Origin: a virus
Virus record (IMG/VR): IMGVR_UViG_3300030419_007002
Span: 1-64,000 of that record
Length of the DNA: 64,000 nt
Strand: one strand, 5' to 3'
Below are positions 26,500 to 59,294 of this stretch, piece after piece. Both the position numbers and the translations under genes were made by a program. Under the pieces are notes generated by a model. The model saw only the letters and a list, made by a program, of their open reading frames with translations, was not told the DNA's origin and made no database searches. Each line of letters opens with the position of its first letter. Position 1 is the first letter of the stretch.

Positions 26500-26853
26500 T
26501 TATTCCCTCATAAGTTTAATCAAAGAAAAATAAACAATAAGCGTTACTATTATAATAGGACAAAGATACCAAAGTCCAAAAAAATAAGCGGAAAAAATAC
26601 TCATCCATACAGTCAAGCATATTGGACAAGTTATCAATCTCATAATGAAAGAGTTATGTTTCTTTAGTAAGAAATCATGATAAGTAAAGAAGGGATTATT
26701 GTTAGATTCTTTTTCGTACTCATCTATTTTAATTAACTTACTTAAGCCAAGTAGCTTGGCGTACTCTAGTAATGCTTCTGTTTTTAACCACAATATAAGA
26801 ATAGTACAATTAATAAGACTCATGTGAGTCAAAATTAAATAATCTATTTTCAT
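26500..26853 (-). CDS. membrane protein with CPxC..W motif (DUF1360-like)
   Basis: LITCPICLTVW plus TM helices; TTGAAA-17-TATAAT ends 6 nt upstream. Confidence 0.6.
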   Translation of the reverse strand: MKIDYLILTHMSLINCTILILWLKTEALLEYAKLLGLSKLIKIDEYEKESNNNPFFTYHDFLLKKHNSFIMRLITCPICLTVWMSIFSAYFFGLWYLCPIIIVTLIVYFSLIKLMRE

Positions 26854-26914
26854 TTATGAATTATATTAAAGCATATTAAAATTTTCAAAAGTATGTTAAC
26901 GCTTCTTTAAGCAT

Positions 26915-26949
26915 AAAAAGACAAGACCCCCTATGAAAGGGGGCCTTGT
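26915..26949 (-). terminator. intrinsic terminator
   Basis: ACAAGGCCCCCT-TTCAT-AGGGGGTCTTGT-CTTTTT. Confidence 0.85.
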
Positions 26950-27275
26950 GTGTATGCGCACGCTTCTTTGAAGCCATGTTTTGTTGATGCTGATTGGACA
27001 TTCAGCGACCTACACAAACCGAAAGATATATTCGGAACCACCTACCTTCCTTTGAAGGCGAAGAAACTGTGCTTAAAACTTCTTACAGTGGTCGACCACA
27101 ACACGCCGGGGTATTGCAACAAGAATTACTTGTTAGTTTTTTAGATTATCTTGGTAGTAGATAATAGCTATCCCTTTGAAATGGCAGCAAGCCAACTGCC
27201 AACCTACTTTGCTTCGGTTATCTTGGGAAACCTTGTCTGATTACTCTCAGCAGGCTGAAAGATGTAAAATCTTTT
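26915..27275 (-). ncRNA. candidate ~360-nt multi-domain structured RNA
   Basis: Own TTGACT-17-TACATT promoter, about 10 hairpins with multibranch closures, terminator; no minus-strand ORF. Confidence 0.7.
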
Positions 27276-27280
27276 TATTT

Positions 27281-27309
27281 AATGTATCCTATTCTTATTT
27301 AAAAGTCAA
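27281..27309 (-). promoter_or_regulatory. sigma70-like promoter for the candidate ncRNA
   Basis: TTGACT (27309-27304), 17 nt, TACATT (27286-27281). Confidence 0.7.
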
Positions 27310-27788
27310 AGTCCACTGCTCCCGAACCCTCCAGAACCCCTCTCTGATTCAGAAAAATCACTTACCTCAACCCAGTCTGGGGTATAGCATTTTTCGATAA
27401 TTAATTGAGCCACTCTATCTCCGGGGTTTATTTCTATCTTGTTCCTTTCGCCGAACATACTTTCCATAGCAGAGTTTCTTTTACTCTTATCGAAAAGTGA
27501 GTCTGGTAAATTTAAATTTATAAGAACCACCCCAAGCTCACCTCTGTAATTTGAGTCCACAACCCCAGCCAAGACATCTAATCCCTTTTTTACGGCTAGG
27601 CCACTTCTTGGAGCGATCCTGCCGTAATACCCTTCTGGTATTTCTATTGATATGCCAGTAGACACGACGGCTCTTTGCATTGGGTTTATAGTCACCCTAA
27701 TATCACTAAATATATCAAAGCCAGCGTCCCCTGCGTGTTGATTTTCTGGCTTGATAGCTGAAGGAGATATCTTTTTAAACCTTATCAA
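27306..27788 (-). CDS. dut: dUTPase
   Basis: AGFD, RIAPRSGLA, GVVDSNYRGE, GDRVAQL, RGSGGFGSSG. Confidence 0.95.
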   Translation of the reverse strand: MIRFKKISPSAIKPENQHAGDAGFDIFSDIRVTINPMQRAVVSTGISIEIPEGYYGRIAPRSGLAVKKGLDVLAGVVDSNYRGELGVVLINLNLPDSLFDKSKRNSAMESMFGERNKIEINPGDRVAQLIIEKCYTPDWVEVSDFSESERGSGGFGSSGL

Positions 27789-31890: not shown

Positions 31891-31921
31891 AAAATCAGGG
31901 CCTCGTGCCCTGATTTTTTTT
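31891..31921 (+). terminator. intrinsic terminator
   Basis: AAAATCAGGGC-CTCGT-GCCCTGATTTT followed by a T run. Confidence 0.8.
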
Positions 31922-31955
31922 GTATTTTTACATAATTGATAGTATCATCATCTAT

Positions 31956-33044
31956 ATGAACCTTTCTTTAAATTTACCTTTGAATAGCGTAAGCTTTGGG
32001 CAGGTGTCTACAGCCTTGCTAAGGGAGGTGTACAGCAGGGGAATGGAGCCCTGCTTATTCCCTATAGGAAACGTAGATATAACCTGCCAACCGGATGATA
32101 AGGACTTCTCTGACTGGATAGATACGTGCGTGAAAAAGGCTAACTCACATCACGACAGAAAAACCCCCACCCTCAAGCTGTGGCACATAAATGGTTCGCT
32201 AGAGTCTTATAGCGAGAAACAAATGCTATACACCTTTTACGAGCTAGACCAACCCACCGCCATAGAAACTAATATTTTAAAAAATAATACAAAAGTTTTG
32301 GTAAGCAATACAGAGGCGAAAGAAGTCTTAAACCTCAACGGGGTTGAAAACGTAAGCGTTATACCTCTGGGATTTGACAAGACTAACTTTAAGGTCTTAG
32401 ATAAAAAATACTTTTCAGACAATAGGATAGTATTTAATATTGTAGGAAAATTTGAAAAAAGAAAACACCACGTAAAACTCATAAGGTCTTGGATAAAAGC
32501 TTATGGAAATAACCCAAAATATTTCCTTCAGTGCTCTATATGGAATCCATTCCTGAAGCCAGAAGACAATAATAGCATCATAAACCAGATAACAGAAGGA
32601 AAAAAGTTTATGAATGTTAATTTCTTAGGGGCCATGCACAAAAATTCGGTATACAATGATTACCTAAATTCATCTAGCATTATTATAGCTATGTCAGGAG
32701 CAGAGGGGTGGGGGCTACCAGAGTTTCAGTCCGTAGCAATGGGCAAACACTCGGTAGTCTTAAACTGCACGGGCTATAAAGAGTGGGCAAATAAAGATAA
32801 CTCAGTACTAATAGAGCCTAAAAACAAAATAGAAGTTTATGACAATATGTTTTTTAAGAAGGGACAAGACTACAGCCAAGGGAATATATATGATTTTTCG
32901 GAAGAAGAATTCCTAAAGGGTTGCGAAGAGGCGGTAGCCAGATTCTCTAAAAATAAAATAAACGAAGAAGGACTAAAGCTCCAAGAAGAATTTACTTACC
33001 CCAAGATGCTAGACTCCATAATAGAGGCATCAGAAACCATTTAG
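31956..33044 (+). CDS. GT4 (GT-B) glycosyltransferase
   Basis: VGKFEKRK, S.AEGWGLPEFQS; likely start MNLSLN. Confidence 0.8.
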   Translation: MNLSLNLPLNSVSFGQVSTALLREVYSRGMEPCLFPIGNVDITCQPDDKDFSDWIDTCVKKANSHHDRKTPTLKLWHINGSLESYSEKQMLYTFYELDQPTAIETNILKNNTKVLVSNTEAKEVLNLNGVENVSVIPLGFDKTNFKVLDKKYFSDNRIVFNIVGKFEKRKHHVKLIRSWIKAYGNNPKYFLQCSIWNPFLKPEDNNSIINQITEGKKFMNVNFLGAMHKNSVYNDYLNSSSIIIAMSGAEGWGLPEFQSVAMGKHSVVLNCTGYKEWANKDNSVLIEPKNKIEVYDNMFFKKGQDYSQGNIYDFSEEEFLKGCEEAVARFSKNKINEEGLKLQEEFTYPKMLDSIIEASETI

Positions 33045-48972: not shown

Positions 48973-49049
48973 GCTCTCGTAGCTCAATTGGATAGAGCAT
49001 CTGTCTTCTAAACAGAGGGTTCTGGGTTCAAGTCCCAGCGAGAGTACCA
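48973..49049 (+). tRNA. tRNA-Arg(UCU) with encoded CCA
   Basis: Acceptor GCTCTCG/CGAGAGT-ACCA, D arm, anticodon stem TCTGT-CTTCTAA-ACAGA, GGTTCAAGTCC T arm. Confidence 0.95.
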
Positions 49050-58880: not shown

Positions 58881-59294
58881 GGGAGCGTACTGGATTCGAT
58901 TTAGGGTCTTACGCCAGATTGCAAGTAGAGGATGATAGTTGGCCTCTTTAATAATCTATCTAGGAAACTTCAACTGCCGATAATATTGTTGATATGGCTC
59001 CTTCGCTTGACGAAGCTGATGCGATTCTCGCTAAGTTTGGTTGGACCGAAGAGGCCGCGATGGCAGCATAGATTGCCCCGTCCTACTCCGGATGCTCGTT
59101 AAGGAGATAGGGCGACGACAGCGAGCAAAACACTGGTTGAGTCTGGTTGAGTCTCCAGTTGCTTAAAAAAAGATAGACCAAACCTTACGTGAAGTTGTCG
59201 GTCACAGACACGTATTGCATTAGATCGACTAAGCTTGTAGTAATTTGAGCCGATGGCTTTAAAGACGCGGGTTCGATTCCCGCCGCTTCCACCA
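58881..59294 (+). ncRNA. ssrA: tmRNA
   Basis: GGGAGCG/CGCTTCC-ACCA acceptor with G3.U, GGATTCGA, GGTTCGATTCC T arm, tag ORF 58976-59071 ending AMAA*. Confidence 0.95.

Follow-up and report, generated by a model that had tools for sequence, protein, structure and literature searches.

What occupies the stretch of DNA, poor in open reading frames (ORFs), that lies directly behind the gene dut in the virus record IMGVR_UViG_3300030419_007002? The DNA analysed here (the window) is 64,000 nucleotides (nt) long and makes up the first 64 kb of this 104-kb IMG/VR record, which is estimated to be 60% complete. On the minus strand no ORF of 30 or more amino acids (aa) is present between positions 27041 and 27306. 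An original prediction, made from the letters of the window, proposed for this place a stand-alone, large, multi-domain RNA of no recognised class. This is what we find: the stretch holds a free-standing minus-strand RNA gene (27274–26913), present once in the record, which is Rfam-negative, covaries among its homologues, follows a promoter at a fixed distance and encodes no conserved protein. That it represents a new family of large, pseudoknotted phage RNAs is well supported. Two features of the family are newly described: a module at the 3' end that recurs beyond the terminator and co-varies with its twin from phage to phage, and a genomic slot that in related phages is filled by a second, unrelated RNA-like element.

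The ORF-poor stretch, the promoter and the strong terminator all lie where they had been placed by the original prediction. The promoter is of the sigma-70 type (27281–27309; minus strand, as are all parts of the RNA described below), with the -35 box TTGACT at 27309–27304, a 17-nt spacer and the -10 box TACATT at 27286–27281, and it overlaps the stop codon of dut. In 14 of 27 homologues a TTGAC-N16-18-TAnnnT signal (score of at least 9 out of 12) precedes the RNA at a constant distance, compared to 1 of the same 27 when a control window 100 nt farther up is taken; by eye, TTGAC can be recognised in about 20 homologues. The distance stays constant whichever gene stands upstream, be it dut, the gene for an unknown 145-aa protein or another. 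The intrinsic terminator (26913–26949) consists of a 12-bp stem-loop at 26949–26921, which is helix 16 of the structural model given below and 98% paired, and a U tract at 26920–26913, whose quality differs among homologues and is poor in some. Promoter and terminator together predict a primary transcript of about 360 nt (26913–27274), and the nhmmer profile of the family spans 27295–26909 of the window (E 2e-87).

The RNA was also said not to be the 5' leader of the next gene, and this proved correct: the neighbours vary among homologues and the next gene is separately promoted. In the window this gene encodes a DUF1360-like protein (26500–26853, minus strand), and its promoter (26853–26888; score 11/12) comprises TTGAAA at 26888–26883, a 17-nt spacer and TATAAT at 26865–26860, so that the ATG at 26853 begins just 6 nt past the -10 box. 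The gene that follows the RNA is likewise separately promoted in at least 16 of 26 homologues, with the -10 box 5–8 nt (mostly 7) before the ATG. These downstream genes are without a Shine-Dalgarno sequence, whichever gene fills the position, and are probably made as leaderless mRNAs. With the promoter so near the ATG, a read-through transcript from the RNA gene would add an untranslated leader only.

The first homologue was found via related dut loci, as a 71%-identical stretch 5 kb from the dut of its contig and behind a different gene. Further copies came from exact-pattern scans with conserved words over IMG/VR and metagenomes, to give about 40 homologues from IMG/VR and marine metagenomes, all but one of them in viral or marine contigs and some of the metagenome copies on scaffolds bearing Tara Oceans names. 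Removal of duplicates and a profile search led to 32 distinct sequences, which form the set for the covariation counts; six additional homologues were later obtained from loci fetched through a neighbouring glycosyltransferase. Homologues L042 and L063 match the nhmmer profile at E 8e-38 and align through all core helices, L042 being alignable with the RNA of the window from end to end. When 185,579 prokaryote species (one genome each) were searched with the pattern, there were 67 matches, among them a single true homologue; the RNA is thus in effect phage-restricted, and the family is peculiar to a single clade of marine phages, which are large, long-tailed and uncultured. The sole copy in the cellular collection (L093:3811-4188) sits on CAZYHH010000001.1, a 44-kb contig in a metagenome-assembled genome of an uncultured 'Pseudomonadales', and could be either a hint at the host or a mis-binned phage contig.

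To judge whether the RNA is more structured than chance would have it, its folding energy was compared with that of shuffled sequences. The minus strand has a z-score of -4.3 with the terminator and of -1.3 without it (10 of 100 shuffles fold equally well), and the plus strand one of -1.9. The expectation that the RNA folds better than shuffles is therefore borne out for the whole transcript and not for the part before the terminator; energy alone is weak evidence, significant through the terminator only. It is because of covariation, and not of energy, that the RNA rises above chance. RNAalifold predicted 45 pairs from the 32 sequences, 31 of them with compensatory changes, and a scan of all column pairs combined with inspection added crossing helices. 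The resulting model of 16 helices and 66 pairs, in which four helices are pseudoknots, was counted on the unmodified MAFFT alignment of the 32 sequences. Standard pairs fill 92.9% of its cells, compared to 78.9% in shuffles, and pairing drops to 39–49% when the 3' partners are slid by 1–3 columns. Changes on both sides are seen in 48 pairs (296 cells); as none of 500 shuffles attains any of five measures of the model, the covariation that the original prediction had looked to among homologues is plainly there. The compensatory changes are massive and confined to one strand.

Some elements called for other measures. H0, H3 and H7b are too variable in sequence for column counts and were judged by hairpin folding in each sequence, while for PK1, H9 and PK5 the energies of duplexes formed within each phage were compared with those of cross-phage duplexes by permutation. 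Own-phage duplexes are the more stable for PK1 (mean -5.2 versus -3.2 kcal/mol; permutation p<0.0002) and for H9 (mean -9.7 versus -6.9 kcal/mol; permutation p<0.0005, with z < -1 in 23 of 25 homologues). PK5, between a GAAG loop and the CUUC after PK4, is weakly supported (permutation p 0.025). The fold that covariation reveals is compact: some dozen short helices make up its body, at least four pseudoknots (PK1–PK4) hold them together, and the long-range helix H9 docks the 3' tail back on the core. No helix closing the 5' end on the 3' end covaries among the homologues. A candidate for one, 5' UUUAAGC with GCUU(C)AAA, was rejected: the words are complementary, but the U30 variant is uncompensated.

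These same data bear on the possibility that there is no RNA gene at all, and that the stretch is a decayed or small protein gene, or a spacer with chance hairpins. The low z-score without the terminator would fit such a reading, as would the presence of ORFs of 56–74 codons on the plus strand. A conserved protein encoded by these ORFs had been named in advance as a finding that would count against the RNA; no ORF is conserved, the homologous frames having stops or frame switches in most relatives. Moreover, the RNA is about 70% identical in nucleotides where the adjacent dUTPase protein is only 49–58% identical, and the compensatory changes fall on one strand. The interrupted frames and the covariation together essentially rule out a non-RNA explanation, barring an alignment artefact, and we consider it almost certainly wrong.

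From its 5' end, the predicted RNA begins with H0, a hairpin AAGAU/AUCUU (27259–27273) that forms at least 4 bp in 29 of 32 homologues, with the variants AAAGG/CCUUU, AAAGC/GCUUU and AACGG/CCGUU. H1 (27231–27255; model helices 2–3) is a two-part hairpin with the conserved loop GAGAGNAAU, 94–98% of its cells being paired and five of seven pairs changed on both sides. In H1b (27202–27218) a 3-bp stem NCC/GGN, which varies as TCC/GGA, GCU/AGC, ACC/GGU and AUC/GAU, closes the conserved 11-nt loop GAAGNAAAGUA. This loop would be the 5' strand of the candidate PK5, with CUUC at 26973–26970 as its partner. H2 (27201–27182; model helices 5–6) and PK1 together occupy 27166–27201: GGCU in the H2 loop (27193–27190) pairs with AGCU (27169–27166) across the conserved linker UUUCAAAGGGAU, the linker between H2 and the 3' strand of PK1 contains the invariant AAUCAAGGGAU, and the pairing varies as GGUC/GACC, AGCC/GGCU, GGUU/AACC and AGUC/GACU. 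H3 (27145–27165), variable in sequence, forms a hairpin in 30 of 32 homologues. Its loop CUAC (27157–27154) makes PK2 (model helix 8) with GUAG (27013–27010) after H7b, some 150 nt downstream, which is 94% paired and has both-side changes in all five pairs (e.g., AU 14 / CG 14).

The segment 27118–27139 carries the 5' strand of PK3, AAAC (27139–27136), and then H4 (27134–27118; model helices 9 and 10). PK3 is 99% paired (GGAC/GUCC, AGAC/GUCU, AAAC/GUUU), its 5' strand (AAA-GGAC) pairing into the loop of H6; H4 is 98% paired, with both-side changes in six of six pairs and an invariant loop UAAUU. There follows an apparently unpaired junction of invariant columns, GCAAUNCCCCRGCG...GGU (27094–27117), within which some homologues have an extra hairpin, and then the three-way junction H5/H6/H7 (27036–27093; model helices 11–13). 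H5 (27093–27087 with 27042–27036), which encloses the invariant GUAAG, is 100% paired and has both-side changes in five of seven pairs; the loop of H6 (27081–27079 with 27063–27061) holds the PK3 3' strand GUUU (27067–27064); and H7 (27058–27045) is followed by the invariant UAG. This junction is the core of the covariance model R1, which was built on the conserved core with L042 included. Beyond it, the variable hairpin H7b, here CCGAA/UUCGG (27019–27035), forms at least 4 bp in 32 of 32 homologues. The 3' domain (26946–27018), supported by the permutation test for H9 and by model helices 14–15, consists of H9, in which strand X (27017–27011) pairs with X' (26954–26948), the enclosed hairpin H8 (27006–26989), and PK4, in which CCA of the H8 loop (26997–26995) pairs with UGG (26976–26974), with the variants CCC/GGG, CUC/GAG and CCA/UGG. 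In the window X overlaps the 3' strand of PK2 by 3 nt, and its exact register here is therefore a deduced one.

Two further words within the RNA may be mentioned. A 12-nt palindrome, GTGGTCGACCAC (27087–27098), overlaps the 5' strand of H5; homologues differ (e.g., GTGGTAGATAAA), and being unconserved the palindrome is probably incidental. The conserved segment around the GAAG loop (GATAACCGAAGCAAAGTAGGTT) is matched exactly over 22 nt at L022:7796-7817 and L028:9997-10018, in an otherwise unrelated 28-kb viral contig; chance alone would give about one such match in a collection of this size.

The helices put forward in the original prediction can be compared with this model, and fare differently according to their span. 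Eight coincide with helices supported here: AAGAT/ATCTT is H0, TGGCAG/CTGCCA is H2, ATTATCT/AGATAAT is H3, AACAAG/CTTGTT is H4, CCTTC/GAAGG is H7, CCGAA/TTCGG is H7b and GCTGA/TCAGC is H8, to which is added the terminator hairpin. The long-range closing helices turn out to be peculiar to the window: AGCCTGCT/AGTAGGTT, GGGATAGC/GCAATACCC and TGTTG..CAACA are unconserved in homologues, as are CGACC/GGTCG and ACTGT/ACAGT. Of the global fold proposed, the local hairpins remain, and the long-range helices give way to conserved pseudoknots.

The 3' end of the RNA has an unexpected companion. In all 25 homologues examined, the approximately 22 nt that follow PK4 are repeated immediately past the terminator. 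In the window copy 1 (GCUUCAAAGAAGCGUGCGCAUAC) lies within the RNA at 26952–26974, and copy 2 (GCUUAAAGAAGCGUUAACAUAC) at 26891–26912, directly past the terminator and 2 nt before the next -35 box; in most homologues copy 2 ends 1–16 nt before the -35 box of the next promoter. The consensus is GCUU(C)AAAGAAAAG..CACAC. The twin copies vary among phages yet match within each phage, both at the start (GCUU, CCG, CCU or CUA) and at the 3' end, which phage by phage is CAUUCC, CCAUGU, GCGC or CAUAC. Alignment scores between the twins average 26.0 within the same phage and 19.8 across phages, and none of 5000 permutations reaches the observed value (permutation p<0.0002). The module and its co-variation are a newly described feature of this RNA family.

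Only one of the twins is accounted for by the fold. Copy 1 is part of it, as the 3' strand of H9 and of the candidate PK5. For copy 2 a scan along the RNA revealed no covarying partner anywhere in it; for pairing with strand X, own-phage and cross-phage duplexes give no signal (p 0.12), and complementarity to X is kept by only about 10 of 25 homologues. The 104-kb record contains no further copy of the module. Copy 2 as a general phage promoter was rejected, the motif being confined to the RNA locus, and no internal 'twin box' was found within the aligned core.

Clustering of the proteins around 36 copies shows that the RNA is always in the same early nucleotide-metabolism region, with genes for dut, deoxycytidine monophosphate (dCMP) deaminase, deoxynucleoside monophosphate (dNMP) kinase, a uridine diphosphate (UDP)-glucose dehydrogenase-like protein, a sigma-like protein and ribonucleotide reductase. 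Upstream stands dut (27306–27788 in the window, minus strand; PF00692, E 2e-35) or the gene for the 145-aa protein, for which the ESM Atlas offers only sub-threshold matches to hypothetical proteins; in a few loci it is another gene or one on the opposite strand. Downstream stands the gene for a DUF1360 protein, for dNMP kinase, or one of two others. Since the neighbours differ among phages, the RNA forms an independent module rather than a leader. Its slot is at, or within three genes of, the point at which the two early gene arms diverge, and in the window the cumulative GC-skew has its minimum and the AT-skew its switch at 28–30 kb, both of which gene orientation alone could cause. The early region occurs in two arrangements, with the flanking blocks inverted around a small divergent core (about 29.1–29.5 kb in the window). 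The RNA is near this core in both, beside different genes, and has thus moved relative to dut.

The slot is not always filled by this RNA. Among 80 relatives fetched through the glycosyltransferase at 31920–33044, 14 carry it 1.5–3 kb upstream, according to both nhmmer and the covariance model R1. At least 16 others have an ORF-free gap of 380–550 nt at the same place, before the gene for dNMP kinase or the sigma-like protein; these gaps bear no resemblance to the RNA, and R1 did not detect it in them. Ten of these gaps share a second, unrelated RNA-like element of about 400–450 nt, with a TTGACA promoter and long conserved blocks (L142:7639-8017, L151:7566-8050, L152:7694-8099, L166:7555-8017, L163:3028-3500, L156:7589-8060, L184:7906-8353, L211:7588-8055, L179:2600-3047 and L199:2750-3236). 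RNAalifold on the ten sequences gives compensatory changes in 16 of 33 pairs, there is no Rfam match, and a purine word, GGGRAAAGU, flanks the 3' hairpin on both sides. Six other gaps at the slot (L170, L192, L193, L195, L201 and L216) align with neither family. The filling of one slot by a second, unrelated RNA-like element in related phages is likewise newly described.

The record itself codes for a DNA polymerase, minor tail proteins and large tape-measure-like ORFs, which point to a large, long-tailed, sipho-like phage. Two of its ORFs beyond the window are adjacent, at 90645–99797 (3050 aa) and 99812–101302 (496 aa); the latter, which is the one scanned, matches tape-measure PHROGs. Should both be parts of a single tape-measure protein, a tail of exceptional length would follow. 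No match was found in 50,697 deposited phage records, either by BLASTN in a distant mode or by tblastn with two neighbour proteins, and a cultured relative is accordingly lacking. Searches of the record for the T4-type markers Gp23 and MotA gave no match and neither did their controls, which makes them uninformative. The phage also encodes a tRNA-Arg(TCT) at 48973–49049 (plus strand), which is the tRNA closest to the RNA gene, 22 kb off, and a transfer-messenger RNA (tmRNA) at 58881–59294 (plus strand; Rfam 124 bits), for which ARAGORN gives a tag peptide of 31 residues ending in AAMAA.

Does the RNA belong to any class already known? With the 4227 models of Rfam 15 at gathering score, the window yields only the tmRNA and the tRNA, both elsewhere; a permissive scan of 26700–27500 gives chance-level matches on the terminator only, and nine homologous loci give no match within the RNA. 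A published catalogue of some 8,500 unnamed candidate structured RNAs from IMG/VR has a mean length of 67 nt (PMC10690425). Particular classes were also considered and rejected. A group I intron is contradicted by flanking genes that are complete, unrelated and variable, by the lack of a match to RF00028, and by the order of strands, which on inspection is PK3-5', H4, H5-5', H6-5', PK3-3', H6-3', H7, H5-3' and differs from that of the group I core. A riboswitch or T-box leader is contradicted by the lack of an aptamer match, a downstream gene that varies, and the intervening promoter. By eye there are look-alikes of the thiamine pyrophosphate riboswitch ('CUGAGA'), the T-box ('AGGGUGG') and the 11-nt GAAA-receptor ('CCUAAG'), and in some homologues a short AUG...UAG frame; these, and words like the RNase P regions CR-I and CR-V, were not retained, since Rfam gives no match for them and their partners either fail to covary or lack conservation. 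We think that the RNA is not a leader, an intron or an mRNA.

What, then, might it do? With slightly less than even confidence, we favour a gene standing on its own, whose product is a stable non-coding RNA of about 345–365 nt and acts in trans, as a folded particle binding a phage or host protein. Host RNA polymerase would start at the sigma-70-type promoter, which lies hidden in the last part of the gene upstream, and would halt at the strong hairpin terminator; the RNA would serve as a component of a ribonucleoprotein or would act as a decoy, with a protein of the phage or the host as its target, and its invariant unpaired bases (GAAGNAAAGUA, AAUCAAGGGAU, CCCCRGCG, GUAAG and UAG) may serve as tertiary contacts and binding surface. 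The density of tertiary pairings, together with these bases, speaks for a particle of defined three-dimensional shape that some partner recognises. Several points weigh against this interpretation: the RNA, its ends and its expression are predicted here from DNA sequence; its neighbours are nucleotide-metabolism enzymes and unknown proteins, with no partner protein identified; and a particle acting purely in trans leaves unexplained both the constant position, 0–3 genes from the divergence of the early arms, and the co-varying repeat past the terminator. The main rival, an origin-linked pre-primer like RNA II of ColE1, accounts better for the twin module, for a slot that is fixed and for the pattern of skew; we hold it to be rather unlikely. 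The purine-rich 3' module would hybridise to the template of the identical copy downstream and form a persistent R-loop, to be processed into a primer or to open the origin. Consistent with this, the module stands astride the 3' hairpin and nowhere else in the record; copy 2, having no covarying partner in the RNA, may have its partner in DNA; the gene is always near divergent transcription; and a different RNA-like element in the slot of relatives is what would be expected of a cis-acting site kept by position. Gene orientation, however, accounts for the skew just as well, five tertiary pairings that covary and numerous invariant bases at the junctions exceed the known needs of a pre-primer, the strong terminator between the copies would stop most polymerases short of copy 2, and no DNA-unwinding element, iterons or initiator gene has been identified. 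It is unlikely, too, that RNA and twin module form a self-contained, RNA-programmed cis device at the phage replication origin, in which the knotted body would hold the 3' module by the identical DNA word and seed an R-loop that primes or licenses replication, and in which unrelated RNA families could take the slot among sister phages.

The RNA might alternatively control transcription in cis, as a riboswitch-like attenuator or a put-like antiterminator acting at the hairpin. Promoter, folded RNA, terminator and co-oriented genes occur together in nearly all loci, H9 and PK4 immediately precede the terminator, the poor U tract of some homologues makes read-through plausible, and the surrounding genes serve nucleotide metabolism. 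The gene that would be controlled is, however, unconserved (at least four families) and separately promoted close to its ATG, no known aptamer class matches, and where GGG of PK4 has become GAG the change is compensated in the H8 loop, while the C run of the terminator, the obvious antiterminator partner, is unchanged; we regard control of this kind as decidedly unlikely. Very unlikely, finally, is a ribozyme, either self-processing or acting on other RNA, with the twin modules as two equivalent substrate or product sites. One word in two copies astride a 3' hairpin would suit it, and the size, pseudoknot density and invariant junction nucleotides are within the range of RNase P, group I and glmS, but there is no similarity to any Rfam ribozyme family, the CR-I and CR-V look-alikes form no P4-like helix, and the strand order is unlike P3–P8 of group I.

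To our knowledge, large RNAs with complex and strongly conserved folds are rare, and nearly all those with a known role do something fundamental. RNase P, tmRNA, introns, riboswitches and guide scaffolds are examples. The RNA described here occurs only within a clade of big marine phages that are uncultured, and it is unusually dense in pseudoknots. Two features make its function approachable: the 3' module, of which selection maintains identical copies on either side of the terminator, and the fixed slot, where sister phages have a different RNA; either could be tested on plasmids with E. coli RNA polymerase, so that culture of the host is unnecessary. Should it turn out to be an origin RNA or a ribozyme, or to form the core of a new ribonucleoprotein, phage biology would gain a new kind of RNA machine, and if the cis device proves true, structured origin RNAs of large DNA phages would constitute a new class. 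Otherwise Rfam still gains a new and well-defined family.

In size and organisation the RNA is comparable to tmRNA and RNase P RNA, which are also about 350–400 nt long, with their own promoter and terminator and several pseudoknots. The original prediction had set RNase P and introns aside, rightly as it appears: besides the Rfam result and the complete flanking genes, the helices P4 and P1 are absent. Short words resemble CR-I (AAAGU.GGG) and CR-V (ACA.GGGCUU) of bacterial RNase P RNA, but the GGG of the latter covaries with the H8 loop (PK4) and there is no P4-like helix with CR-I; nor is there a covarying 5'–3' closing helix that could be the terminal P1. As for tmRNA, which has a tRNA-like end, ARAGORN and Rfam find one only at 58881–59294, and the present RNA ends in a terminator hairpin, without a tRNA-like end or a conserved short ORF. 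RNA II of ColE1 and the oriF and oriG transcripts of T4 share with it a promoter, a fold and a length of several hundred nucleotides. In ColE1, as Masukata and Tomizawa are said to have found in 1990, a G run of RNA II pairs with a C run in the template about 245 nt downstream. Both systems have an upstream RNA word identical to a downstream word, here in a plausible origin position; they differ in that there is no homology, that a 22-nt module astride the terminator takes the place of the G run, and that the present fold is far more knotted. The remaining comparison is with GOLLD and ROOL, large ornate RNAs often found in phages and prophages, whose structures have been studied by cryo-electron microscopy (bioRxiv 10.1101/2024.12.08.627333). 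At 580–800 nt they are about twice as long as the approximately 360 nt here, they frequently have tRNA neighbours where this RNA has no tRNA within 20 kb, their models (RF01998 for GOLLD) do not match it, and the twin 3' module is without a described counterpart in them. What they have in common with the RNA of this record is nonetheless extensive: all are phage-borne, free-standing and several hundred nucleotides long, with many pseudoknots and conserved junctions, and all are known only from comparative genomics.

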